Shown: piece by piece, positions 30,914 through 64,000 of the stretch
How positions within the stretch are numbered: position 1 is the first letter of the stretch
How the letters are laid out: each line of letters starts with the position of its first letter
Assembly: GCA_000002435.2 (NCBI GenBank)
Contig: CM018791.1
Origin: Giardia intestinalis
Lineage: Eukaryota
Strand: one strand, 5' to 3'
Length of the DNA: 64,000 bases
Position numbers and translations under genes: made by a program
The notes under the pieces: generated by a model
Databases searched by the model: none
Seen by the model: the letters and a program-made list of their open reading frames with translations, nothing else
Told to the model about the DNA's origin: nothing

Positions 30914-32176
30914 TCAGTAGTCATCGCCTGCGCTGAAGACCTCCGTTCCCCAACTGCCCACCATAAAAGTATGTTCAAACTGAGACGTGTGGCAGCCCGA
31001 CTTGTCACTGAGTTTGGGATACGCGTTGACAACCCCGTTCTTGACGAGCGTGTCGAGAGCAAGTTGGAAGTTCTTCTCTCCCATGGACTCAAGAGTCCTG
31101 GGACTCCATGCCAAGGTGCCAAACATGGTGCGCAGCTTAGTGAAAAGCTTCTTGGACATCTCGGGCCCCTTGATGAAGGCCGGCTGGAGTGACATGGACT
31201 TCGACGAGACCATGTAGTGAGAAACAGGGTACTCATCGCTGATCATCCCGCGGCCCGTGGATGCAAACGTTTCACATGCAAATGTCTCCCCTTCAAGCAT
31301 GCGGCCATACTCTTTTCCCTTTCCTCTGCAGTTTGGTATAGATTTGCCTGAATGTATCTTATACTTTCCAACCATGTGTCCAGACAGGTTGCGGACCGGT
31401 TGAAGCTTAATAGGTGCGTTCTGGTTCTTGTAATCCATCTCGTACGAGCAGATGATCTCTTCTATCTTATTTCCTAATTCAGATATGAGGACATCGGGAC
31501 CTGCAAGCTTAATTGCCTCTGTTGTAGCCTCCAAGCTGGCCTGCGCCAGGGGGTCGAACATAGGATCAAAGTGAATAGTGAAGGCAGAATCGATAATATA
31601 CCCATCGCAGTGAATCCCAAAGTCAACTTTGATAACATCCTTCTCAGCGATGATATGGTCATCGTGCTTGATGGGAGTATAGTGGGCAGCACAGTGGTTG
31701 TATGACAGACCAAGCGGAAAGGCCTGAGCACACCAGGCATTGTCATCTGGCTTATACGTGCAGAACTCGTCCTCAGAATGGCCGCACAAGAGGCGAATGC
31801 GGCTCTCTATGTCCTCCGCTGCGGCGTACATGCTGACTCCTACCTTGAGAACAGACCTAGCATAGGTACGAACTTGGCGGTGTATCTCGGCAGCCCTACG
31901 CATGCACTTGCGTATGTGCTCGTTATCAGCCGGTACAAAGTCTGACGACTGGGGATCGGCAGACCAAAGGAGGCGTCCCACTGGGTATGGTTTCTCCCCG
32001 AAAAAGTCATGAACCGGGAGTGTCGGAGGGGTAGTTTGCCCACAGGTGTACAGGGGGGCCTCCAAGGTGACGTTAGGAATCGGGTTGGAGTCGATGAGAG
32101 CCATCCACAAAGTAAATGACAGATGAAATAAAAGAAAAATGAAAAACCCAGTACAATTATTTTTCCACAAGACCAT
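30914..32176 (-). CDS. Methionine aminopeptidase 2 (type II MetAP). 420 aa as listed; the true start is more likely the ATG at ~32102-32104 (MALIDSNP..., ~396 aa).
   Basis: Pita-bread fold motifs (KVDFGIHCDGYIIDSAFT, HYTPIKHDD, ..SGHMVGKYKIH..) match MetAP2. The first 24 track residues (MVLWKNNCTGFFIFLLFHLSFTLW) are a translated AT-rich promoter. Confidence 0.85.
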   Translation of the reverse strand: MVLWKNNCTGFFIFLLFHLSFTLWMALIDSNPIPNVTLEAPLYTCGQTTPPTLPVHDFFGEKPYPVGRLLWSADPQSSDFVPADNEHIRKCMRRAAEIHRQVRTYARSVLKVGVSMYAAAEDIESRIRLLCGHSEDEFCTYKPDDNAWCAQAFPLGLSYNHCAAHYTPIKHDDHIIAEKDVIKVDFGIHCDGYIIDSAFTIHFDPMFDPLAQASLEATTEAIKLAGPDVLISELGNKIEEIICSYEMDYKNQNAPIKLQPVRNLSGHMVGKYKIHSGKSIPNCRGKGKEYGRMLEGETFACETFASTGRGMISDEYPVSHYMVSSKSMSLQPAFIKGPEMSKKLFTKLRTMFGTLAWSPRTLESMGEKNFQLALDTLVKNGVVNAYPKLSDKSGCHTSQFEHTFMVGSWGTEVFSAGDDY

Positions 32177-32212: not shown

Positions 32213-33940
32213 TCACCGGTTTCGCGCACCATTGGGGTCTGTCTTCTCTTTATCTTTCTCGCAGCACAATAACAACACCAGTTCTACGGTTATGCAGACA
32301 CAGACGGCCAGACCCAGCAAAAGGAGCTGCCACAAAAGATCGTTCAGGACGGGACTGACTGAGATGAGCGTTACTAGGTAAATTGAATCTATATCATTGT
32401 CGTAGTCTGGAGTGAAGGTGAGTAGCATTGTGTACGATCCCTCATCCTTTCGCAAGCGCGCCAGCCACTCTATGCACGCGGAGGCTAGGAAATTTGTGGG
32501 ATCTGAGCAATAGAATTTAAAATTGGAAGGTGATAAATCTGTAACAGGAACCTTTAAACTTATTATTCTAGTCAGATTGTTCAAGCTCTTACTTTGCAGA
32601 TACACGTTCACTAATAGTATCGCTTCACTCATGGATGTATCCTCTGCATTAGAATCCACTGGTAGCTGTAAGAGCTTCTGAGAGACGAAGGAGATGTGGT
32701 CGCTGGCCACATAGGCGTTGATGAAACCCCAGGCGCCCAGTTTGGTGTTGGGCACGGGATAGCGAAGGACAAGGTCTTCTCTGGTACCCCCCGTGGTGTA
32801 ATTGGGGAATGTCAGTATGACCTCAGACGTTATGATGTTATTGGAAGAGATCAGCTGCGTAAGTATGTTGCATATTAAAGTGAATCTGGGTGCATCGTGG
32901 CAAATTGTGTATATAAAACTCAGTTGTGTGAGGAGCTTGAATTCTTGATAGGACGTCCACTGGAAGATTGGAATAGTTGACGAATAGTTTTTGTTGAAGA
33001 TCACGACTTGAATTTCCACTAGCTGATCGTCTGGCACCCTAATATTGGAACAGTCTTCTGTCTGGAGCAGCTCAATGCTTGTGCCAATATAATATGGGGC
33101 TATGGTGGTCAAGAAGTTGATGAAGCACGCGTGCCCGCGGTCGCTGAACACTTTCTGGACAGGGAATATCATGGCACCGCCGTAAATGGAGTTCTTGAAA
33201 TCTAACGTAAATACTCCATCAATCCCTGCCCTCCTAGTAACAGCAAAGATGGCTTCTCTGCAGGGAAAGATGCAGATGCTTTGGATTTCCGGCATGTTGA
33301 ACGAAAACTGAGCAAGGTCAAAGTTGGTGAATAGAAACTGTGCAGTGGAGTTGACTTCCATGTAAAGGGCGATCTTTAGTAACTGCGCGCGTGTCAGTGC
33401 CGAACACATGTAGGTAGGCTTTCCATGGATGGTTAAGGCAGATGTCAGGTAGTCATATGTGACCGTCACAACATTATTTTCATAGCAGTTGCTAAAGTCC
33501 AAGGTGTTGATGGTAACGGGCCCTATTGGTATCCACGTGTAGATGTTTAGATTATATATTGCCACAGACAGGACCTCTAAGCTACTGAGCGAATGGACGC
33601 ATTGGTCTATTGCATTAAGCTTATTGTTTGGCATGTTCGTAAAGCAGCTGAAGCAGATCTCGGCAGGATCTTCATAGCCGCTATAATTAAACACAGGAAA
33701 GACTCTGAAAAAAGAGTTGAAGTTGCTCGATATATTGAGCTCTGCAAAGCACCCGATATTGAGGATATTGCATTCTTGCTCTCCAGTTGCTTGAGCTAAA
33801 ATGCATATGGTGCCTCTGAGGGGATTCACGTTGACAACTCGAGCAGGGTACCAGCACTCCACGTAAGAGGGCACGGAAAAGATCACGCCAGACATGTCAA
33901 AGATGACCTGGTCAAGCCCAAAGGCTTCCAGGCCTAGCAA
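32213..33940 (-). CDS. Cys/Asn-rich type-I-like membrane protein, ~560-575 aa. Large N-glycosylation-site-rich ectodomain, single C-terminal TM, short cytoplasmic tail (...CCEKDKEKTDPNGARNR). Start uncertain: the track start is a TTG; the first ATG is ~45 nt inside.
   Basis: ORF. C-terminal hydrophobic stretch LLWQLLLLGLAVCVCITVELVLLLCC. Many NxS/T sites. An in-frame hydrophobic signal-peptide-like segment (ILWICAILLGLEA) lies upstream of the first ATG with no ATG of its own. Confidence 0.6.
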   Translation of the reverse strand: MLGLEAFGLDQVIFDMSGVIFSVPSYVECWYPARVVNVNPLRGTICILAQATGEQECNILNIGCFAELNISSNFNSFFRVFPVFNYSGYEDPAEICFSCFTNMPNNKLNAIDQCVHSLSSLEVLSVAIYNLNIYTWIPIGPVTINTLDFSNCYENNVVTVTYDYLTSALTIHGKPTYMCSALTRAQLLKIALYMEVNSTAQFLFTNFDLAQFSFNMPEIQSICIFPCREAIFAVTRRAGIDGVFTLDFKNSIYGGAMIFPVQKVFSDRGHACFINFLTTIAPYYIGTSIELLQTEDCSNIRVPDDQLVEIQVVIFNKNYSSTIPIFQWTSYQEFKLLTQLSFIYTICHDAPRFTLICNILTQLISSNNIITSEVILTFPNYTTGGTREDLVLRYPVPNTKLGAWGFINAYVASDHISFVSQKLLQLPVDSNAEDTSMSEAILLVNVYLQSKSLNNLTRIISLKVPVTDLSPSNFKFYCSDPTNFLASACIEWLARLRKDEGSYTMLLTFTPDYDNDIDSIYLVTLISVSPVLNDLLWQLLLLGLAVCVCITVELVLLLCCEKDKEKTDPNGARNR

Positions 33941-33942
33941 AA

Positions 33943-35880
33943 TTGCACAAATCCACAGTATTGATCGTTTTTAAATTGGGCATGACTAGTGGTAGCTCTA
34001 GTAAGGTCCGTCTTTTCTACACACAAGAGGGTGTACTTACCCTCACCGGGCCGTCTATCCCTGAAACGAGGGGGGTCGCTGCCCTTGCTCTTCTGCGTTA
34101 TCTCCCCACCTTGCAGGGGGTCCACTTCACAGAGCGGAGCCGTGACATCTTGGAGTGCAATGAAGCCACTGGCGAAGGCTTAGATGATGTGTACATATTA
34201 ACATCAGATGAGGAGAGCCTCCGTCTTCAAGACCTTGTGCAGGCGACCCTGGCAGAAGAGGTTACTCCGTGGGACAGCTTGCAACATCGACAGAGACAGA
34301 AGGCGAGCTCTCGCTATGACTGCGCGTTCAGTGTCTGTGTCCTTGTTGTAGGGTCTACCCTTCTATCAACCAGAGACAAGCAGAATCTTGTGATTAGCGA
34401 CCTCAACTTGCCTGGAAAATCTGATGTAACCCCCACGGCTAAGCTCAGCTTTTACGAGGCTCTTTACATGTATCCTGCATTAGATAGTAAACATTCGGGA
34501 GACACATCTTCACGTGGGGTTCCGAAGCTCATTCTGCCGGGGTATATGCTTCTTCTCAGCGACGTCTTCTTTAGCATGAAGGTCCCACAGTTTCCCAAGT
34601 TAATGATCAGGCCTCAATCGCAAGTGTGGAACCTGAGGGAAGATCTGCCACGTGACTGGTCTCTCAGCAAGCATCGAGAAGCAACAAGGCTCTTCAGCCA
34701 ACTCGGGTTTGTGCGCGCGTGCCACAGTAGTGCAGGTCAGACAACTATCCTGGGTCAGGAGATATATAACGGCTGCTTCCGAAATATGCATCTTAAGCCT
34801 CTTACATCTGAGCTTCTTGCTCGGGCGGGGGAGATCTACAAGAAGACAGTTGTTCCTATTGACGCTGAGATAGTAGACTCTAAGAGTGGAGCGATTCAAC
34901 TACACACCGGCGCTGACCACGGAAACGTCCCAGTGGTTATATCTGAAGTATATCATGGCGACTCCTATCTTAGAGAAGTCACGGTAGAGATAGCACAGTT
35001 GGCACGGCGGAATGCGTGCGTGCTAGTGCTCCTAAATAGCACCTTTCAGCAGGACTTCATCGCAGTCACTAATGCCCCAAATAAGTTTCTCCTGTACATA
35101 CGAGACCCGTTTGAAGAGCTGTTTGCCACAGCTTCAGAGTGTCCGCATGACAACACACTGAATACGGATGTGCCCGAACCTCTGCCCAAACGTGTTGATG
35201 AGAGTAAGCCCCTGTCAACGATTAAGGTCCATAGTGCTACAGATTGCAAGGATAACCCTCTCATAGAAGGCCCGCCTCTTGCTGCTCTCCTTCCGCCCTA
35301 TGCTATTACCAGTAGAGACATTTGCTATTCAGTCACGCCAGATCCTCTAGCATCTGCGTATCTCCAAGATATCGGTGAAGTAACAGATTGCACAATAGAA
35401 TTTCTTAATGTAACTTTATTATGGCAACACACAAAAGGGCATGTCTATCCCCATCACCGGTACACAAGACTCAAGGAGTCTCAGCACCTTATCTACTCCT
35501 CTAGTTCGAGTACACGCATATTAAGTACTACAACCCTTCTCACCGAGGTTACAGTGCTTAGCGACTCCACAGGCCCAGAGAAAGCTTACGTCGTCATCCC
35601 CCATGCTTTGTTTCACGAGCTTTTCCTTCAGCTTGTCCCATCGTCTGTGAGCCGGGACAACTTTGAACTGAGTGACCCCGAGACGGGTGCTGACATGCGT
35701 GACGAGCTGCCTTGTCTCTGGCCGCTGTGTGTTTTGTGTATAATCCACAGACTCAGCGTACCACGTGCCAAATTACTAATTCTACGCACTAAGTTTCCGC
35801 TGCCGCCAGATGAGGTCCCAACGAGTGCACAGCCCGGCCTCCGGTACCTTTTAGATTTAGATGCATCGAATATTAAATAG
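33943..35880 (+). CDS. Hypothetical protein, 645 aa as listed. The true ATG is probably at ~33982 (MTSGSSSKVRLF..., ~632 aa).
   Basis: The track start codon is TTG. The first ATG lies 39 nt downstream. No recognisable domain. Confidence 0.6.
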   Translation: MHKSTVLIVFKLGMTSGSSSKVRLFYTQEGVLTLTGPSIPETRGVAALALLRYLPTLQGVHFTERSRDILECNEATGEGLDDVYILTSDEESLRLQDLVQATLAEEVTPWDSLQHRQRQKASSRYDCAFSVCVLVVGSTLLSTRDKQNLVISDLNLPGKSDVTPTAKLSFYEALYMYPALDSKHSGDTSSRGVPKLILPGYMLLLSDVFFSMKVPQFPKLMIRPQSQVWNLREDLPRDWSLSKHREATRLFSQLGFVRACHSSAGQTTILGQEIYNGCFRNMHLKPLTSELLARAGEIYKKTVVPIDAEIVDSKSGAIQLHTGADHGNVPVVISEVYHGDSYLREVTVEIAQLARRNACVLVLLNSTFQQDFIAVTNAPNKFLLYIRDPFEELFATASECPHDNTLNTDVPEPLPKRVDESKPLSTIKVHSATDCKDNPLIEGPPLAALLPPYAITSRDICYSVTPDPLASAYLQDIGEVTDCTIEFLNVTLLWQHTKGHVYPHHRYTRLKESQHLIYSSSSSTRILSTTTLLTEVTVLSDSTGPEKAYVVIPHALFHELFLQLVPSSVSRDNFELSDPETGADMRDELPCLWPLCVLCIIHRLSVPRAKLLILRTKFPLPPDEVPTSAQPGLRYLLDLDASNIK

Positions 35881-45255: not shown

Positions 45256-46854
45256 CTACAGCCTCGACTTTGCCTCCATAACCTCCTTTCTGAACCTCTT
45301 ATCAGTTATGTACTCGTTTAGGACCCTGTTGATTGTGCGCATATAAAAGCGCTGTTGCGCTATTTGCAAGGTGTAAACAAACAGGACCAGGACAGCTATT
45401 GCTACAAGCAGAAGCACAATCATCGCTATGATAAATGTCTTGTTACTGTAATGAAACGTAACAGCTATGGTATCGCGGACAAGGTTGGAGCCGTTGCGAC
45501 GCTTTATGAGTAGATAGTTGTCGGGCTTTGGCAAAATGCCGTCAGTAGATGTAAGGCCTATATACTTGCAATCTCGTGTGTTAAGATCTGCAAAATCCAA
45601 AGCTATATACAGGTCTAGGAGCACGTCCCTGTACTTGTGAGTCGTTTGTAGATAGATCTTGTAATTACAGCCCATGGTGTTGTCACAATAGAAGATTGGA
45701 CGAAGATCGACGGTCGTTCTATTTTCTAATATGTACTGCAGCGTGAGGCACGTCTCAAATTTCATTGGAAGGACTGGCGTGCTATCATCAGTTATAGGCT
45801 CCTCGAAGTTGTTTGTGCGGAGAATGCAAATCTTTTCTGAAAAGGGGAAGTGTCTGCTTACCAATGCGTTTGCGTAAAGATTGACAGAGGCAGGCATCCC
45901 GTTGCCTGCAAGGGAAAAGTTCACCGAGGTCGCTGTGGAGGAAAATGATAGTAGATAGGAGAGTGAACGATGCTCCGTGGTCCCATCAAGGTTCGTTATT
46001 GGCCCAGGGCGCTGGATACAGTGGTATACATCGACAGACCCTAAGCCGGTAAACTTACCATAAACTATGGAGATGTATTCTGGGCTTGGGAGCTTTTTAA
46101 TGCTAAGAAGCTTGCCGGCGTCAAACACATAGTCGGAGTTGGGAAGCATGGTGCATGCTTCAAAACTCTTGATGAACCTACGATAGAGATAGAAGCCCAT
46201 TAACCAACAGATAACTGTAAGTATGACAAACCCGACGAGGTAGAGAAGTGAAACATATGCAGCGATCTGGCCTCTCCACGATTTCGAGTACTCTAGCTTG
46301 CAGTTCATGATCAACTCATTGAAAATTGAGTGATTCTCTGGCAGAACAGTGTACCTTTTTGCTATTTCTCTTAGACGCTGATCGTAGAAATATTGCCATC
46401 GACAATACATGCTTCTGAAAGGCGGCAAGTTGTCCAGCGAAACGTTGCCTTCATTCTTGCAGTCAACGTTAGAATCAGCAGCGCTATATTCACTGGACTC
46501 GCTAGTGGAGCTAATAATGCTGGTGACGCTCTCTAGACTCTTGTGAGTGGTGCTTGATAGCCCTCTTTTTTCTGTTTTGGCAGTGGCCGTTGATGCTGCT
46601 GTTAGTGCCGTGCTGTTGGAGTGGGGATCGGTGATGGTATCTGTCTGCGTGCTGTACATATGCGTATTAAAAAGAGCCATCTCTTCTTGTTGTGGGACGT
46701 AAGTTCCTGCTATTTGCTTGGACAAGAATCCGGGCCGTTTAGATCGATGTTTGGTGGGTGCGTTTGGGTTTGGGCTTGGTAGTTTGGATACTGGGCTGGC
46801 CTTTCTTTTACCTCTTTTTGAAGAAGCACTCTGTAAACCAGGATTGTCACGCAT
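45256..46854 (-). CDS. Hypothetical two-pass membrane protein, 532 aa. Basic, low-complexity N-terminus; TM around residue 200; C-terminal TM.
   Basis: ATG confirmed (CAT 46852-46854). Hydrophobic segments IAAYVSLLYLVGFVILTVICWLMGFYLY and IIAMIVLLLVAIAVLVLFVY. Confidence 0.6.
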   Translation of the reverse strand: MRDNPGLQSASSKRGKRKASPVSKLPSPNPNAPTKHRSKRPGFLSKQIAGTYVPQQEEMALFNTHMYSTQTDTITDPHSNSTALTAASTATAKTEKRGLSSTTHKSLESVTSIISSTSESSEYSAADSNVDCKNEGNVSLDNLPPFRSMYCRWQYFYDQRLREIAKRYTVLPENHSIFNELIMNCKLEYSKSWRGQIAAYVSLLYLVGFVILTVICWLMGFYLYRRFIKSFEACTMLPNSDYVFDAGKLLSIKKLPSPEYISIVYGKFTGLGSVDVYHCIQRPGPITNLDGTTEHRSLSYLLSFSSTATSVNFSLAGNGMPASVNLYANALVSRHFPFSEKICILRTNNFEEPITDDSTPVLPMKFETCLTLQYILENRTTVDLRPIFYCDNTMGCNYKIYLQTTHKYRDVLLDLYIALDFADLNTRDCKYIGLTSTDGILPKPDNYLLIKRRNGSNLVRDTIAVTFHYSNKTFIIAMIVLLLVAIAVLVLFVYTLQIAQQRFYMRTINRVLNEYITDKRFRKEVMEAKSRL

Positions 46855-46896
46855 TAAGGAGCAAACTTTTCCAGCAGATATCTAAAATTTTAATCA
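46855..46896. promoter_or_regulatory. 42-bp bidirectional promoter spacer between the divergent membrane-protein and IQ-protein genes
   Basis: Sequence aggagcaaacttttccagcagatatctaaaattttaatca lies between CAT (46852-46854) and ATG (46897). Confidence 0.45.
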
Positions 46897-49356
46897 ATGT
46901 CTCAAATCGAGGTTCCTCCACGCTCCTTACTCTGCAAGCATTTTGCAACCGAGGGCTCCCCTGATGTCTTCGACACAGCAGTCCAAACACTCTACACGCG
47001 TTTCTTCAACTCCATGCGCAAGATTGTTGCTGCCACAACCGGTCAATCTCATTTGGCTGCCCCTAAAATGTGCACTAGAGACACACAAACGTATTCGTTT
47101 AAGAACGCTATAGTACAAACCAAGCGAGAGGCCTTCACTCAGCCACAGAGAAGCACCCTACTAAATTCTGACAAAACGCCGGGAGAATACACTATGATCG
47201 GTCGGTCCGACCGTTACGAAACATCTGAGAAGTATCTACGGCGCAGAGACGCGGCCATCATTCTTATACAAGCGTGTTGGCGACGGTACAAGGCTATGTG
47301 CCGGGCAGATTCTATCCGTGTTGAGCGCGCTACGGTGCAGCAACAGCAGCAGGAGCTTGAAAATCAAACTGCCATAACTCGCGAGAAAGAGCGACAATTT
47401 CAACTGAACCGTCGCATCTGTCCTCGCACTTCTGAGGACTTTCAACTCCTGTACGATGAGGTGGCTGTTTGGGTTCGTCAGCAGACCTTTTCGATCAAGG
47501 AAGCAAATCTTCCTCCAGAGGCAAAACAGGCAAGCTTTGAGCTACTGCTAGAGAAGGAGACACGCCTTTTGCAGAATATCGATCTACTGAAGCGTCAAGC
47601 CCATTACTTAAACCGTTCTGACAGGGTCGGCCAGTTTTTCCACCGAATATCTAAGCCGCGAAAGTGGCAAATATCTGACGGAAGTTTTGTCGATGTGATG
47701 ACACCGTACAGTCTCAGAGCTGCTTCTTTGCGTGACCTATATTATGCCCTGGAAGAGTCTTCCTGCTTTGTTGGGCCGAATGCGGATACTATCAACTCTT
47801 GCGCAGGATACACAGTGACACCATCGTCAATCAGCAACTATCGAAAGACCATAGCAAGCAAATTCGAGGGCTCCATGATTGATCAGCGGCTGGACGTGCT
47901 TCTACAAGTTAAGTGGTGCCTAAAGGAGTTTGATTGTGACCTAACCAGAGAAGCCATTTCACTAATAGATAGGGAAGCCGATCTGCTAAGTAGAGGACGC
48001 TCTCAGACAAGTCTCGGAGGGCTCCGCAGGCGCCTTCTTGCTCTCTTTCTTCAGTTTGCAGAGACACCGGAATTTAATCCAGGGACACTAGAGCTCATCT
48101 CAGACGAGGCGGACTTGGTTTATAGGCCTAACACCTTGCCAATCATAGACTTTAGATCACTCAGTCCTTTGCATCGTGAAAAGCTTGCCCGTATCAAAAT
48201 GAGCAGACAACGCATGAAGCAGCTGAGCTCCGTGGATGAAGCCAGAGAGAAGATGCAACTCGTTGGCCGCGTCCCTACAGAGCCTGGAGCTGCTGACACT
48301 GCATATAAAGACTTATCCCACGTGGGGAAGTACGCCAGGCAAGACTCCGATACAGGCAGGTCGCCCATTTGCACTGATAGACCTGACGGCGCTGGCGATA
48401 GCGACAGTGACCTCTTCAATCCAAACATCGACCGGACCAACTTACGATTGGTTCACCTCAATTCTCCTTTGCGGAAGAAGTACCGTGGAATGTATGTGGA
48501 CGAGGACACATTTTGTGACTTTCCTGGAATAGGGATCCCACTGGTTTCTGAGGAGGCTTTTATCAACGATGGTATAAACTACGTGATAGAATACGTGGAT
48601 ACAAATACAGATGCAATGAAGATATTTGATGAGAACTACTATGGGGTAGGTCAATCCCCAGCAGGAGAGCAGGGCACTGTTTTGCCATCAACATTAGCAC
48701 CAAACCAAGCATTAGCAGAGCAAAGTACTATTTTAGAAGGAGAAGAGGGGTATGAAGAGAATTTAGATCATGATTTGATTAACGATAGTGGCTCGAGCGA
48801 CAGATATGGCCAGGGTCCCAACTTTGAGCCAGAAACAGTTGCGGTGATCGCACATCACCTTCACGGAGATGACCCAGATATTTTGGGTCACGTTATTGCT
48901 CAATCTGGGGAGGAGGCCGTTACTCCTCAGGATGAACGGAAGGATCTAGATGAATCCCTAAAGGTGGGTCACGTGGACATGGACGATGCTCCGATACGAG
49001 AGATAGAAGAGCAGGATATGGAAAGCATAGAAGATGATGAAGATATGCTACTTGAGGATATCGATAACGAGGCAGATATGAATGGTGCGCGTGGAGTCAC
49101 TAATGAGGGTTTTCGCAATGTAGACAATCTAAATCTAGTTGAAAGTATTGAAAACGCAGGACATGTGATTGATTCTCGCGTGAACTTTGAGGAACTTCGA
49201 GAGCACAGCGACCCAGGAGGCAGCAATAGCGATCCCGGAGTCGTGCTTAGCGAGGAACTTCCAGAAAACCAGGAGCTAAGGCCTGAAGGGCATCTAAATG
49301 AAAAGATCGATGAAGAAAACCGAGACGATGACTTCTTGGAGGACGAGATGGAGTAA
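46897..49356 (+). CDS. Hypothetical IQ-motif protein with a strongly acidic C-terminal tail, 819 aa (possibly a calmodulin-binding flagellar or cytoskeletal component)
   Basis: IQ-like motif AIILIQACWRRYKAMCRAD. A C-terminal ~170 aa rich in D/E (...EDDEDMLLEDIDNEADM...DDDFLEDEME). Confidence 0.6.
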   Translation: MSQIEVPPRSLLCKHFATEGSPDVFDTAVQTLYTRFFNSMRKIVAATTGQSHLAAPKMCTRDTQTYSFKNAIVQTKREAFTQPQRSTLLNSDKTPGEYTMIGRSDRYETSEKYLRRRDAAIILIQACWRRYKAMCRADSIRVERATVQQQQQELENQTAITREKERQFQLNRRICPRTSEDFQLLYDEVAVWVRQQTFSIKEANLPPEAKQASFELLLEKETRLLQNIDLLKRQAHYLNRSDRVGQFFHRISKPRKWQISDGSFVDVMTPYSLRAASLRDLYYALEESSCFVGPNADTINSCAGYTVTPSSISNYRKTIASKFEGSMIDQRLDVLLQVKWCLKEFDCDLTREAISLIDREADLLSRGRSQTSLGGLRRRLLALFLQFAETPEFNPGTLELISDEADLVYRPNTLPIIDFRSLSPLHREKLARIKMSRQRMKQLSSVDEAREKMQLVGRVPTEPGAADTAYKDLSHVGKYARQDSDTGRSPICTDRPDGAGDSDSDLFNPNIDRTNLRLVHLNSPLRKKYRGMYVDEDTFCDFPGIGIPLVSEEAFINDGINYVIEYVDTNTDAMKIFDENYYGVGQSPAGEQGTVLPSTLAPNQALAEQSTILEGEEGYEENLDHDLINDSGSSDRYGQGPNFEPETVAVIAHHLHGDDPDILGHVIAQSGEEAVTPQDERKDLDESLKVGHVDMDDAPIREIEEQDMESIEDDEDMLLEDIDNEADMNGARGVTNEGFRNVDNLNLVESIENAGHVIDSRVNFEELREHSDPGGSNSDPGVVLSEELPENQELRPEGHLNEKIDEENRDDDFLEDEME

Positions 49357-59177: not shown

Positions 59178-62114
59178 TTAGGCACTCATCTCATAGAACT
59201 TGAAAACAGCCGCTTGGCATCTGGAGGGGCAATCCAGATACAGATACAAGTCTCCCAGAAGGAGCTTCACGGCCCTTAGTAGGTGGGGACTTCCCCGTTC
59301 GCTCATAGGGATCAAGACCATCATTATGTCTAACAGCTCTAGCTCATGCTCTCCTTCGAATGATAGGCTTTCAATCGGCTTTGACTCTGCTAGCACGACA
59401 GGGATCGTGCTATAGGAAGACCTGCTAACGTCTACAAATTGGCAATCCTCAAACAGGACAGAACTAAAGAACCACATAACCACAAGCATGCAGCACAGCT
59501 CATCGGGATCGAAGCGACCCCACAGCTTGTTGCAATGCACATAGTAGATGGCCTTTCTCACGTCGTGTATATATGGAACTGATCCAACATCTAGTCCGCC
59601 ATGGACAAGCTTGCTGCCGACCTGCGAGGCCCAAAGGCGTAACTGAATTACGAGGGCATTGTCTGATGATAGGTCTTTAGTTGTCAATACGAGCGAGTCT
59701 GGATACTCCCGTGCCACAGCCTTATCACCGTCTACACAGGTTATGCACTTAACTTCTCCAGGTCCTGCTTTCTGTTTGGTTGTGCTTACAGGCTCATCCA
59801 ACCTGCTGCTTATGAAACTAGTGTTCTTAACAGTCATGGCACCAAGATGTCCGATGTAATTAAAGAGCTCTGTGATTGCACGGCCAATAAATGTTGCTGA
59901 GATCGCCTGTTTAATGGTGGACTCGGTTGTAAACAGGTAGCACGCATCCTCAATACTATGAATATCGTAAATGTCACGTATTAGAAAGGCCCGCGTGTAA
60001 ATAATAGACGTCAGAGCATGACGGATAGATGACCAAGACGAGAATGATGTGTAAAGGGCATAGTAGTAAGTCTCAGTGAGGGTCTTGATGTAGTCCTTTA
60101 AGTTCTGTGTACGCATCTTAGAGAGGGTGAAAGAGCGAGATGGCGGATAAATAGCAACGCTTGGCAGTCGCACAGTACCTGAGCCGGGCGGAGAGTGTGT
60201 TATGGTGTTATAGTTAGTGAAGCAATTCAGCTGCATTGGTGTACCATATGGAGCTTCAATCCATGCTTTCTTCGCCTGTATGTCATCTTTTGTCACGGTC
60301 TTCAAGTCATTGAGATAGGTTGGACCCCCAATGGTCCCGGGTGCGTATCTCTTCCCCACCTCTACCCTATTAAATCGCGTGCCTGGAGGGCAAATATTAC
60401 GAGGCTCTGTGCTGTTCCATTTTGATGGCATCGTCCCAGCAATCTTATCGAGTGTCTTGAGCGTATGAGGCACCAGACTGGAATCATAGCCCTCACGCAT
60501 CTTTGAGTAGGCTGACACTGTCTTACTTCTATCAACTGGAGGCTCGATTGAAAGTGGCTTTTGTATTTCTCCGACAGAGCGTGCCAGGTTGACCGTGGCT
60601 TTACCACCTCGTCGATGCGTACAGACAGAGGTACCAACCCTGTTGCTGATTGCATCTCTACTAGACTTTAGGTTCATTCCTCCAGAGAGCACGTTGTTGG
60701 GTGTGTCATCTTGTAAGGACACCTTTTTATGATACTCTGCGGTGGCTACTAATAGATCACAAGCCACCTTACACATCATGACAATAATGTCAGTGTCGGC
60801 AGCCTTGGAGTTCTCTATCATATTAATTGCATCTTCGTTATTAAGCTTATAGTATGTCCTGGGGTCTCGGATGTTAAACTGCGGGATTCCAGGATTGATG
60901 GCAGATATATCTGACACTTGTAAATTCTGTGTCGATTTGCTTAGTACAAGTCCGCGTCTACTTAACTTCAAAGGGATCTGCATCGGAGACTTGGGCATGT
61001 TTTGGTAAACAGACCCGCTTGCACCCAGGGCGTTTTGGATGAGCATACTCTCTGCGATCGTATGAGCCGGGCTCTCTTCTGGTTCGTCATCAATAGCAAT
61101 GAATTGCGATGAAGAAGAAAGGTCTTGCAAGGCATCTGACACGGAAAGGGCCATAGGGTTGCCAAGAAATTGGCGGTACGGCTCTAGGTTGATGGTTGTT
61201 TTGTTCTGCAGGCTCATAAGGTCAAATTCTTCCTCCTTATTATGCGATGCATGCATAGCCGATGAACCTTTGGTGTATGTGTGTCTTCGTGTTTGCCAAG
61301 TCTCACTAAGCTCCATGCCAGCGTCCGAGATTCGCAGCCACACATTGTTAAAGATAGTTATTATAAGCCCAAGGGACCTTGTGCAGAGGGACTCGTACTC
61401 CAGTTCGTTTTCAGAAATGATTTCGAGATGATAGAGTTTGTTTACGAGTTCCGCCGCGAGAAGTAGAAGATAGCATTCATTAGATAGCCCCAGAGACGTC
61501 GAGCTTATCTCTGCTTTAAAGACAGCAAGCGTGGGGAGCAACGAATTGGATATTCTTTGCCGCTCGTTGAAGTAAGCATTGCGTGGGTCAAGCACATTGG
61601 CAGTAGAGCTCTTCGCGCCTTTGGAGCCATGCTGCCCCGTGTTAGTGGTCTTTGTATTTGTCGTGAGAATTTGCTCCGTGTCACAGTGAAACGTAGTAAG
61701 ATAGGAGCCGGTCACGACCATGTTGCAGTAGCTCAAGATGTCCAGGTCACTGAGCATCCCCTTTCCATAGCTCCAAAAGACTGTCCGTATAATTTCGGGC
61801 TGGATAACCTCAGCACAATGGTATGGCATGAAAACTCGATTGCAGATGGAGAGAACATTTCTAATCGAGCATAACTCCGTGAAGTAAGCCATCAGGGCAG
61901 AGGCAATGGCGTTAACGATGTCTGTGTAATGAGCCTGCTCTTGCGCATTAAACTTGACAAGTACTCTGGGGTCTAGCTTCAGGCACGGCAGAATGTCAAG
62001 AAACCCCGCTAACGTGCCCGAAATCTCAGCCCTTACCTTGGGATGAGCAAGATTTTCCTGAAGAATTGTCTGCAAAGCGGCGTACTGGCTTTCTAACGAG
62101 TTTAAGTCTATCAT
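59178..62114 (-). CDS. Hypothetical protein, 978 aa
   Basis: Long ORF with an AT-rich 136-bp upstream region (59042-59177). No recognisable domain. Confidence 0.6.
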   Translation of the reverse strand: MIDLNSLESQYAALQTILQENLAHPKVRAEISGTLAGFLDILPCLKLDPRVLVKFNAQEQAHYTDIVNAIASALMAYFTELCSIRNVLSICNRVFMPYHCAEVIQPEIIRTVFWSYGKGMLSDLDILSYCNMVVTGSYLTTFHCDTEQILTTNTKTTNTGQHGSKGAKSSTANVLDPRNAYFNERQRISNSLLPTLAVFKAEISSTSLGLSNECYLLLLAAELVNKLYHLEIISENELEYESLCTRSLGLIITIFNNVWLRISDAGMELSETWQTRRHTYTKGSSAMHASHNKEEEFDLMSLQNKTTINLEPYRQFLGNPMALSVSDALQDLSSSSQFIAIDDEPEESPAHTIAESMLIQNALGASGSVYQNMPKSPMQIPLKLSRRGLVLSKSTQNLQVSDISAINPGIPQFNIRDPRTYYKLNNEDAINMIENSKAADTDIIVMMCKVACDLLVATAEYHKKVSLQDDTPNNVLSGGMNLKSSRDAISNRVGTSVCTHRRGGKATVNLARSVGEIQKPLSIEPPVDRSKTVSAYSKMREGYDSSLVPHTLKTLDKIAGTMPSKWNSTEPRNICPPGTRFNRVEVGKRYAPGTIGGPTYLNDLKTVTKDDIQAKKAWIEAPYGTPMQLNCFTNYNTITHSPPGSGTVRLPSVAIYPPSRSFTLSKMRTQNLKDYIKTLTETYYYALYTSFSSWSSIRHALTSIIYTRAFLIRDIYDIHSIEDACYLFTTESTIKQAISATFIGRAITELFNYIGHLGAMTVKNTSFISSRLDEPVSTTKQKAGPGEVKCITCVDGDKAVAREYPDSLVLTTKDLSSDNALVIQLRLWASQVGSKLVHGGLDVGSVPYIHDVRKAIYYVHCNKLWGRFDPDELCCMLVVMWFFSSVLFEDCQFVDVSRSSYSTIPVVLAESKPIESLSFEGEHELELLDIMMVLIPMSERGSPHLLRAVKLLLGDLYLYLDCPSRCQAAVFKFYEMSA

Positions 62115-62149
62115 CAGAAGAGAAATCGGTTTACTTAAACACTATGTAA

Positions 62150-62764
62150 TTACGAGATCGCAGAAGCAACAGGAGGAGAGAGCATTCGGGCTAGTTCCGG
62201 TTCACAGAGCTTTATTGCTCGGTCGATCCTCTCATTGAATGTTTCTTCTATGGTCACGGCTCCAGAGGCGGAGTACAAGCGGATGCCCATTACATCTTCT
62301 GGAAGCGATTCCGTGGAGGACAACGTTACAGTATGACAAAACTGCCTACCGACAATATAGTTTCTGACATGATCTGAATCACATGCACGCGAAACCAAAA
62401 CGCAATCATCACCAAGAGTATCTATAGATTCCTGAATGATGCTGCAAAGTGCTGTGTAATAAGCTGGAGTGCGATCAATCTGCTTGAGGCTTGTTTTAGC
62501 GGCATCTCGCACCCTATCAATTATACCTTGAACGGCCTCTGCCATGCGAAAGGTACGCGTGATTTCAAGGCGAGAGATCTGGGAGGCACGGTCTTCCTCG
62601 AGGCTTCGGCGTTTTTCACAAAGTAGCTCCTCCACGCGCTCACGGTCAGCACGCTTCTGCGCCCGCGAGGCAATGAATCCCCGCATGGCGATTTCCGCAC
62701 GCGTCTCAAAGACAAGGCTGTCATGCTCGGAGATCGTCGCGTACAGCGAACCTGCGGTAATCAT
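62150..62764 (-). CDS. V-type H+-ATPase subunit E, 204 aa
   Basis: C-terminal block SLPEDVMGIRLYSASGAVTIEETFNERIDRAIKLCEPELARML aligns with the V-ATPase E consensus (...[41 protein letters not shown]...). Charged helical N-terminus. Its ATG lies 30 nt from the tubulin stop. Confidence 0.7.
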   Translation of the reverse strand: MITAGSLYATISEHDSLVFETRAEIAMRGFIASRAQKRADRERVEELLCEKRRSLEEDRASQISRLEITRTFRMAEAVQGIIDRVRDAAKTSLKQIDRTPAYYTALCSIIQESIDTLGDDCVLVSRACDSDHVRNYIVGRQFCHTVTLSSTESLPEDVMGIRLYSASGAVTIEETFNERIDRAIKLCEPELARMLSPPVASAIS

Positions 62765-62784
62765 AAATCTAAATTAAGGGAGAA

Positions 62785-62791
62785 ATTCACT
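62785..62791 (-). terminator. Polyadenylation signal AGTGAAT for alpha-tubulin
   Basis: AGTRAAY match 3 nt after the tubulin TAA, inside the 30-nt spacer before the V-ATPase E ATG (62764). Confidence 0.7.
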
Positions 62792-62794
62792 CGC

Positions 62795-64000
62795 TTAGTA
62801 GGCGTCGTCCTCCTCCATGTCCTCGCCCTCGCCGTCGCCAAGGGTCTCGGCGCCGATCTCCTCGTAGTCCTTCTCGAGGGCGGCGAGGTCCTCGCGGGCC
62901 TCGGAGAACTCGCCCTCCTCCATGCCCTCACCGACGTACCAGTGCACGAAGGCGCGCTTGGCGTACATCAGATCGAACTTGTGGTCCATGCGGGACCAGA
63001 CCTCGGCGATGGCCGTCGTGTTGGAGATCATGAGGCAGGAGCGCTGGACCTTCGCAAGGTCGCCGCCGGGGATGACGGTCGGGGGCTGGTAGTTGATGCC
63101 GACCTTGAAGCCTGTCGGGCACCAGTCGACGAACTGGATCGTGCGCTTCGTCTTGATGACCGCGATGGCCGCGTTGACGTCCTTCGGGACGACGTCGCCG
63201 CGGTACATCATGCAGCACGCCATGTACTTGCCGTGGCGGGGGTCGCACTTGACCATCATGTTCGCCGGCTCGAAGACGGAGTTGGTGAGCTCGGCGACGG
63301 AGAGCTTCTCGTGGTACGCCTTCTCGGACGAGATGATGGGCGCGTACGAGCAGAGCGGGAAGTGGATGCGCGGGTACGGGACGAGGTTCGTCTGGAACTC
63401 CGTCAGGTCGACGTTGAGGGCGCCGTCGAAGCGGAGCGAGGCCGTGATCGAGGAGATGCACTGGGCGATCAGGCGGTTGAGGTTCGTGTATGTCGGGCGC
63501 TCGATGTCGAGGTTGCGGCGGCAGATGTCGTACATGGCCTCGTTGTCGACCATGAAGGCGCAGTCGGAGTGCTCAAGCATCGAGTGCGCGGCGAGGATCG
63601 TGTTGTACGGCTCGACGACGGCCGTCGCGATCTGGGGCGAGGGGTAGACGACGAACTCGAGCTTGGACTTGCGGCCGTAGTCGACGCTCAGGCGCTCGAG
63701 GAAGAGGGACCCGAAGCCGGCGCCCGTGCCTCCTCCGAAGGAGTGGAAGATCAGGAAGCCCTGGAGCCCGGAGCAGTTGTCTGCGAGCTTGCGGACGCGG
63801 TCGAGGACGAGGTCGACGATCTCCTTGCCGATCGTGTAGTGCCCGCGGGCGTAGTTGTTGGCGGCGTCCTCCTTGCCAGAGATCAGCTGCTCGGGGTGGT
63901 AGAGCTGGCGGTACGAGCCCGCGCGGACCTCGTCGACGACCGTGGGCTCGAGGTCAACGAAGACCGCGCGCGGGACGTGCTTGCCGGCGCCCGTCTCCGA
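62795..64000 (-). CDS. Alpha-tubulin, C-terminal ~400 aa. The 5' end lies beyond the window. Ends ...[14 protein letters not shown].
   Basis: The track ORF 62795..63580 begins at an internal Met. Translation of the minus strand up to 64000 continues the alpha-tubulin sequence (...[14 protein letters not shown]... at 63960-64000). Very GC3-rich. AGTGAAT 3-9 nt after the stop. Confidence 0.95.

Follow-up and report, generated by a model that had tools for sequence, protein, structure and literature searches.

Introduction

How is a conserved hydrophobic leader translated when no ATG stands in front of it? This question is raised by GL50803_12989, a minus-strand gene in a stretch of 64,000 nucleotides (nt) of Giardia intestinalis DNA (contig CM018791.1, assembly GCA_000002435.2), which is referred to below as the window. 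The gene was identified, and the window placed in assemblage A, by a homology search and cluster look-up. The open reading frame (ORF) that ends at 32213 is closed on its 5' side by an in-frame TAA (33971..33973, minus strand), which is followed by K-R-S-I-L-W-I-C-A-I-L-L-G-L-E-A-F-G-L-D-Q-V-I-F-D and then by an ATG (33895-33893) that opens MSGVIF. The letters between the two are TAA-KRSILWICAILLGLEAFG (the same stretch is given as KRSILWICAILLGLEAFGLDQVIFD), and direct reading of the window sequence finds no in-frame ATG among them. An original prediction, made from the letters of the window, had described this ATG-less hydrophobic segment bounded by TAA, and direct reading confirms it in every detail. 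The comparison of five lineages presented here suggests that initiation probably, although by no means assuredly, takes place at a near-cognate CUG or GUG codon at 33958-33956, yielding a 14-residue signal peptide of a type-I membrane protein.

Conservation of the 5' end

The loci compared with the window are all syntenic and represent assemblage E (P15, GLP15_4944; L001), assemblage B (GS, BAH15c1, and others; L004, L008, L012, L013), and two further lineages (L002/L016 and L003/L017) with 61-65% protein identity to the window gene. Judging from the European Nucleotide Archive (ENA) samples and the divergence, these two probably correspond to assemblages C and D of dogs, and they are called C/D-like in the following. 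GL50803_12989 is a single-copy syntenic gene, and its orthologues are 61-82% identical and collinear from the CTG/GTG codon onward. The sequence of the 5' end is real. It is base-identical between the window and six independent assemblage-A assemblies (L005-7, L009-11; both AI and AII, including GCA_000498715.1), and it is identical within the four assemblage-B assemblies (L004, L008, L012, L013) as well as within the two samples of each C/D-like lineage.

The proposed start codon is the CTG directly 5' of an invariant Trp (33956..33958, minus), designated position 0, and twenty codons separate it from the first in-frame ATG (33896..33955, minus). The alignment of the five lineages starts from this codon before the Trp; as the lineages are few and related, the p-values given here are indicative. 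Over the twenty codons, the pairwise ratio of non-synonymous to synonymous substitution rates (dN/dS) is 0.07-0.37, and the rest of the gene has ~0.08-0.12. Variable sites are distributed over codon positions 1/2/3 as 6/6/13 (Fisher p=0.010) and, in the 36 codons up to a conserved ECWY motif, as 15/9/27 (p=4e-5). Stop codons are lacking from the coding frame in every lineage, whereas the other two frames contain 1-4. Moreover, not one indel is found in the 111 nt from the CTG/GTG onward, as against two independent 1-nt indels in the 25 nt directly upstream. The substitution pattern thus shows coding-type evolution without a preceding ATG, of the kind expected of translated sequence. Purifying selection across five lineages places the hydrophobic ATG-less segment beyond chance. 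The low dN/dS, the third-position excess, and the lack of stops and indels also dispose of a pseudogenised 5' end, which the original prediction had offered as one explanation.

An in-frame AUG upstream of the conserved segment is missing in four of the five lineages (A, B, and the two C/D-like ones). The first downstream ATG is not shared either: assemblages A and E have it at codon 21, the two C/D-like lineages and part of the B isolates at codon 32, and in the B isolate L004 the CTG precedes it by 107 codons. A start at any downstream ATG would therefore entail loss of conserved sequence and, always, of the hydrophobic segment.

Two minor observations concern the same region. Codon 32 of assemblage B, the Met of Y-M-ECWY, is polymorphic, being ATG in GS and BAH15c1 and ACG in L004 (SRR21529646). 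Additionally, RNAalifold predicts a hairpin GGCCUGG/CCAGGUC (33898-33927, minus) about 21 nt 3' of the CUG in all lineages; with almost invariant pairs, a covariation term of ~0, and a z-score of -1.18 for the single sequence, it is indistinguishable from coding conservation.

Start codon candidates and the initiator-like element

Position 0 is occupied by CTG in A, E, and B and by GTG in the two C/D-like lineages. Apart from this codon, only an ATT at +2 is a near-cognate common to all five lineages at the beginning of the hydrophobic core, and position 0 is the only strong one of the two. The upstream stops leave little room for other candidates. The C/D-like lineages carry TAA at the site equivalent to that of the window, and in one of them (CD_2) it leaves AAA-CGA-CCA-ACA-GTG, so that the GTG at position 0 and the ATT at +2 are the only near-cognates between the TAA and the core. 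The assemblage-B stop is a TGA, two codons nearer to the CTG than the TAA of A, and leaves CCA-ATA-CTG before the Trp. Of the 55 alignment columns made up entirely of Leu or Val, just one keeps CTG/GTG in all five lineages, and four do so when TTG is allowed (empirical frequency ~0.02-0.07). By this count, the retention of a strong near-cognate at position 0 appears unusual. Furthermore, a purine stands at -3 of the CTG/GTG in all five lineages. If translation begins at this CTG, the full coding sequence would span 32213..33958 (minus), an open frame of 581 codons plus the stop.

The distance of this codon from the promoter is likewise conserved. Giardia 5' untranslated regions measure 0-12 or 1-14 nt, and transcription starts within an AT-rich consensus (PMC4949329, PMC3610916, PMC3792122, PMC7000408). 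Published motifs for Giardia transcription start sites and start codons are AT- or A-rich (PMC3792122, PMC7000408), and an A-rich motif directly before true starts has been used to re-annotate 626 genes of isolate WB (PMC7000408). In the present locus, an AT-rich initiator-like element, AATTTAAAAA (33968..33977, minus), is common to two divergent genes, and its TTTAAAA is invariant in 7 sequences. In each lineage, 8-10 nt separate the end of its A-run from the CTG/GTG, the nearby indels notwithstanding. Among the other long ORFs of the window, the A-rich run ends 0-17 nt before the ATG. For the annotated ATG at 33895, the distance to the A-run is 72 nt, and the 45 nt upstream contain no AT-rich stretch.

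The second of the two genes is the plus-strand neighbour (33982..35880), which encodes a hypothetical protein of 632 aa with a conserved ATG and N-terminus; no Pfam family was found for it. The element sits 4 nt upstream of its ATG, and the gap between the two genes is 23 bp. The original prediction had placed the first ATG of this neighbour in a CATG palindrome close to GL50803_12989. The palindrome is indeed present at 33981..33984 and is invariant in all lineages; its last three bases are the neighbour's ATG (33982-33984), and its first three give, on the minus strand, an ATG that is out of frame with GL50803_12989 in the window. From the neighbour's ATG it is 23 nt to the CTG at 33958 and 86 nt to the annotated start.

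Layout of the encoded protein

The segment that a start at position 0 would add, (L/M)WICAILLGLEAFG (33917..33958, minus), resembles a signal peptide in having a hydrophobic core and small residues at -3/-1 (A-F-G). The mean Kyte-Doolittle hydropathy over residues 2-11 is 2.0-3.1 in all lineages, and the segment aligns without gaps. It reads WICAILLGL followed by E-A-F-G in A and WIF(A/V)(I/V)LL(G/C)L followed by A-A-S in the other lineages. The signal-peptide call is based on hydropathy and the -3/-1 rule, from which the cleavage site is predicted.

At the other end of the protein, a hydropathy-defined transmembrane segment, LLWQLLLLGLAVCVCITVELVLLLCC (32261..32338, minus), is followed by a short charged tail, ...EKDKEKTDPNGARNR (...DPNGARNR), and the stop. 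Between the two lies an ectodomain rich in Cys, as had been predicted along with the C-terminal membrane anchor; the protein has 22 Cys and 6 N-x-S/T sequons, the hydrophobic segment at 32261-32338 is the only one at the C-terminus, and 17 ectodomain Cys are invariant, with 5-11 sequons, across the five lineages. One CxxC motif, CFSC, is present. Nearly all hydrophobic windows cluster at the N-terminus or at residues ~540-565, the exceptions being one to three isolated single windows. With its N-terminal core, its -3/-1 residues, and its C-terminal transmembrane segment, the predicted layout fits a type-I membrane protein with a cleavable signal peptide. The view of the original prediction that the protein needs a signal peptide agrees with this arrangement.

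Beyond this layout, the product remains a Giardia-specific hypothetical protein. AlphaFold2, run from the five-sequence alignment, gave a mean predicted local distance difference test (pLDDT) score of 35 and a predicted template modelling (pTM) score of 0.24, with a helix at 537-572 at low confidence; at these scores the model is unusable. A Pfam search returned no family, the best match being DUF6558_C at E=0.014, which is below the cutoff and was ignored. Only family members, two fragments, and a single weak homologue (P0034) emerged from an exhaustive profile search of 1.8 billion representatives, and no G. muris orthologue was detected.

P0034, the only distant homologue, is a protein of 731 aa from a contig of 60-75% GC (L014 3001-5196, SRR14944320), with hmmsearch E=1.5e-4 and an hhalign probability of 81%; as evidence it is too uncertain to weigh. 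It carries a similar LLALFLVLAASAAELDDMITVPY stretch after a 33-residue Arg/Gly-rich extension from an ATG; its locus is not syntenic, and a follow-up search found no relatives of it.

Near-cognate initiation as the proposed mechanism

These features can be joined into one mechanism. The single 10-bp AT-rich initiator AATTTAAAAA (33977-33968) in the 23-bp gap would probably serve both divergent genes. Minus-strand transcripts would start in or just after its A-rich part and would thus lack the out-of-frame ATG that lies further upstream at 33983-33981. The CUG at 33958-33956, replaced by GUG in two lineages, would then be the first usable codon; its distance of about 9-14 nt from the mRNA 5' end is that at which Giardia transcripts usually have their AUG. 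If the initiator Met-tRNA pairs with this near-cognate, translation would yield M-W-I-C-A-I-L-L-G-L-E-A-F-G, a signal peptide of the short Giardia type, with cleavage probably following A-F-G in A and A-A-S in the remaining lineages. This peptide would send the type-I membrane protein into the secretory pathway. The comparison shows that the sequence is real, that the segment evolves as translated sequence, that a common AUG is lacking, and that the near-cognate codon and its spacing are conserved; from this we infer where transcription starts, which codon is used, that the first residue is Met, and that the peptide is cleaved.

The original prediction had named CUG and UUG as possible non-AUG starts. 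The comparison favours the first, CTG 33958-33956 with GTG in two lineages. The second, TTG 33938..33940 (minus), lies inside the hydrophobic core and would halve it; it is the codon at which the annotation of DHA2_151480 begins and, as the original prediction had observed, also the one at which the mechanical ORF list starts the ORF.

Several points weigh against initiation at the CUG/GUG. In Giardia, initiation reportedly obeys a first-AUG rule (PMC4949329); for non-AUG initiation in a cellular gene of this organism, no report was found in the literature. For GL50803_12989 itself, no record of a transcription start site, ribosome profiling, or an N-terminal peptide was found, and no row for it in proteomic or transcriptomic supplements, as far as these are searchable. 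The literature search likewise found no paper on the gene or its start problem and no ribosome-profiling study of Giardia. The signal peptide would start M-W-I, without a basic n-region, and the AUU at +2 is also conserved and a possible start. The conservation of TGTGGATTT at the start may partly reflect the promoter of the neighbour. Finally, the in-frame AUG of assemblage E might be usable if some transcripts start further upstream.

Alternative explanations

The existing annotation may be right, in which case translation would start at the first AUG (33893..33895, minus; MSGVIF), the protein would have no signal peptide, and the hydrophobic reading would be an untranslated leader or a relic. 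This AUG is the start used in the WB and P15 annotations, and it is the first AUG on any transcript that begins at the A-rich element, in agreement with the first-AUG rule (PMC4949329). However, the leader would then measure at least 72 nt instead of the usual 0-14 nt, and no AT-rich element lies near this ATG. The twenty codons upstream show coding periodicity and low dN/dS, which an untranslated leader or relic does not account for. Moreover, the ATG is found only in assemblages A and E and is missing in B and the C/D-like lineages; in L004 the first ATG, 107 codons after the CTG, would cost the protein conserved Cys-containing sequence. A start at MSGVIF would also leave a Cys-rich, sequon-bearing, C-terminally anchored ectodomain without a targeting signal. 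The annotated start, although the main rival, is accordingly regarded as unlikely.

A non-AUG start at another codon is considered improbable as well. The candidates are the AUU two codons after the CUG and the AUA just before it in A and B; alternatively, the 5' end may direct initiation irrespective of the codon. In favour of a start of this kind, the ATT at +2 is present in all five lineages and the ATA at -1 in A and B, and leaders of 1 nt suffice for mRNA translation in Giardia (PMC3792122, PMC4949329, citing Li and Wang 2004). However, the conservation of ATT is uninformative because all Ile codons are near-cognates, and the ATA at -1 is not conserved, its place being taken by GCA, ACA, or AAA in other lineages. 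AUU and AUA are, in general, much weaker eukaryotic near-cognate starts than CUG and GUG, which further argues against them. In all lineages the codon that separates position 0 from +2 is that for Trp, and the only change seen at position 0 is that between CTG and GTG.

Recoding from the upstream ATG is very unlikely. This ATG (33981..33983, minus) opens MPNLKTINTV...stop and is conserved in all lineages. It could serve as the start if a +1 frameshift or polymerase slippage took place on the A5 run to its 3' side (33972-33968), or if a stop codon were read through; with one A fewer in A5, the reading becomes MPNLKRSILWICAILLGLEAFG, a textbook signal peptide. However, this ATG arises as the reverse complement of the start context of the divergent neighbour, so its conservation follows from the conserved start codon and N-terminus of that gene. 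It also lies upstream of the initiator-like element and is thus probably untranscribed on the minus strand. Its relation to the ORF varies. It is +1 out of frame in A and B; in the C/D-like lineages it is in frame but meets the TAA at codon 4 (ATG CCA ATT TAA AAA CG...); it is in frame and open only in E. A single mechanism such as frameshift, slippage, or readthrough cannot explain all of these lineages because the frame relation differs among them. Separate events would be needed, namely a +1 shift in A, UAA readthrough in the C/D-like lineages, and nothing in E, and run slippage could not rescue the frame in B, as a TGA stands between the A/T runs and the CTG. Across the five lineages, no combination of a conserved slippery site with a conserved frame relation was found that would indicate programmed frameshifting or slippage, and the ATG is in frame with the stop, as readthrough demands, in the two C/D-like lineages only.

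A sequencing or assembly error, or a strain-specific frameshift with a pseudogenised 5' end, is extremely improbable. Two observations speak for it. One contig (L015, SRR26410991, protein P0032) has A4 instead of A5, which gives an in-frame ATG, and the sister lineage E has an in-frame ATG as well. However, the comparison of L015 with the window over ~32990-34450 (1461 nt) shows no substitution but five single-base indels, each in a homopolymer (G5>4, C5>4, C6>5, A5>4, T6>7). One of them truncates the ORF further down, and another creates an ATG-initiated signal peptide by accident. The L015 contig is an artefact, and the window is correct. It serves as a warning against taking one 'repaired' public contig as an orthologue. 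With six A assemblies in agreement, along with four of B and two of each C/D-like lineage, with no usable ATG in B or the C/D-like lineages, and with selection intact, the error option listed by the original prediction is rejected. The particular idea that A5 is an error for A4, giving MPNLKRSILW..., was likewise dropped in view of the comparative data and of the homopolymer artefact in L015. As for assemblage E, the original prediction had held that an orthologue with an in-frame ATG upstream of the hydrophobic stretch would indicate a simple error. Such an orthologue formally exists in E, but its open frame comes from a 1-nt deletion (AATACTG -> AAACTG) that is missing in the other lineages. 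As the deletion is found in E alone, the state is derived, and it implies no error in the window.

A cis- or trans-spliced 5' exon that supplies the AUG is scarcely tenable; a few Giardia genes are cis- or trans-spliced (PMC10711314), but direct reading finds no AG dinucleotide between the in-frame TAA and the CTG in assemblage A, and the intron 3' motif CTRACACRCAG does not occur near the gene, its four one-mismatch matches in the window (4.2 expected) all lying elsewhere.

Consequences for annotation

Initiation at the CUG/GUG would account for a start that has been annotated in many ways. Six N-termini are on record (P0006, P0007, P0014, P0016, P0017, P0018), namely 560, 563, and 548 aa from an ATG, 575 aa with the TTG as M, 580 aa with the CTG as M, and a partial protein of 559 aa. 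The WB model KAE8303301.1 has 560 aa from MSGVIF and the DH model DHA2_151480 has 575 aa from the TTG. The model QR46_0159 has 580 aa with the CTG written as M, and GSB_150610 is flagged 'partial'. Two further proteins (P0003, P0005) begin with 'MWIF', where the DNA codon is GTG and was called by a bacterial-style gene finder. Most models drop the signal peptide and so misclassify as non-secretory what is probably a membrane protein of the cell surface or the secretory pathway in a human parasite. The same annotation blind spot could affect other genes.

The 626 start corrections made in the 2020 WB reference (PMC7000408) illustrate how this may come about. As in those cases, the start proposed here follows an A-rich stretch and agrees with the orthologues. 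Unlike them, all of which moved to another ATG, GL50803_12989 holds CTG/GTG at the indicated position, and the re-annotation therefore left the gene at its downstream ATG (KAE8303301.1, 560 aa).

Comparison with known systems

Non-AUG initiation is well known in eukaryotes, and what is novel here, as far as the literature found goes, is its proposed occurrence in a Giardia cellular gene. Eukaryotic genes with an exclusive, conserved near-cognate start include the GUG-initiated eIF4G2/DAP5/NAT1 and the GUG-initiated P2A of Candida albicans. GL50803_12989 resembles them in that an in-frame AUG is missing, the conservation of coding sequence reaches beyond the first AUG on its 5' side, and the near-cognate codon is kept across species. 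They differ in their long, scanned leaders and Kozak-type context, whereas the codon proposed for GL50803_12989 from sequence comparison would lie ~9-14 nt from the cap. Yeast ALA1 (ACG) and GRS1 (UUG) have non-AUG starts for their mitochondrial isoforms and share the principle that initiation at a non-AUG codon, ahead of the first AUG, extends the protein by an N-terminal targeting peptide (PMC3245939, PMC3306390). The yeast genes, however, make two isoforms, of which the AUG form is cytosolic and the other is targeted to mitochondria. The signal peptide of GL50803_12989 is apparently obligatory, the downstream AUG is not conserved, and the destination would be the secretory pathway.

Within Giardia, the sole non-AUG report found concerns the capsid protein of Giardiavirus, for which a non-AUG start was proposed after an indel broke the AUG-started ORF (PMC8230311). 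That system is likewise revealed by an indel. It differs in being viral, driven by an internal ribosome entry site, and possibly dependent on A-site initiation, with no capped cellular mRNA. With respect to the protein, the short N-terminal signal peptide, Cys-containing ectodomain, C-terminal transmembrane segment, and short tail recall the variant-specific surface proteins (VSP) and high-cysteine membrane proteins (HCMP) of Giardia. Unlike the VSP, which are defined by a CRGKA-type pentapeptide and many CxxC motifs (PMC3610916, PMC7000408), GL50803_12989 has no CRGKA tail, one CxxC only, and no Pfam match, and it is single-copy and syntenic.

The chance that the reduced, short-leader machinery of Giardia starts a conserved secretory membrane protein solely from CUG/GUG, a state kept since before the assemblages diverged, is judged to be about even. 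Giardia is a reference for minimal eukaryotic translation initiation, with leaders of 0-14 nt, a reduced eIF3, and little or no scanning. Its set of initiation factors is minimal (PMC4705826). If the proposal is true, start choice would be governed largely by the distance from the cap or promoter, with near-cognates tolerated, and GL50803_12989 would provide a natural substrate for probing this choice. Additionally, ATG-only models may then hide further non-AUG genes of diplomonads, especially signal-peptide genes now labelled 'cytosolic' or '5'-partial'.

Other start sites in the window

A few further observations were made on start sites elsewhere in the window. A second divergent pair, 45256..46854 (minus) and 46897..49356 (plus), is separated by a 42-bp gap (46855-46896) with TAAAATTTTAAT and has the same compact shared-promoter architecture; both of its genes start with ATG. 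In the MetAP2 ORF (30914..32176, minus), the first 24 codons of the 420-aa frame (MVLWKNNCTGFFIFLLFHLSFTLW, 32104-32176) are AT-rich and promoter-like (GGAAAAATAATTG...TTTTTCATTTTTCTTTTATTTCAT). No A-rich run precedes its first ATG, and the second ATG (32106-32104) gives a product of 396 aa, as in most orthologous loci. The longer MetAP2 models of 420-443 aa in some isolates are probably over-extended. Towards the end of the window (62001-64000) the GC content jumps to 0.59, and the ORF 62795..63580 (minus) has no stop in the 140 codons that precede its first ATG. A longer ORF, with the true start further upstream, probably encloses it, and its upstream reading looks tubulin-like.

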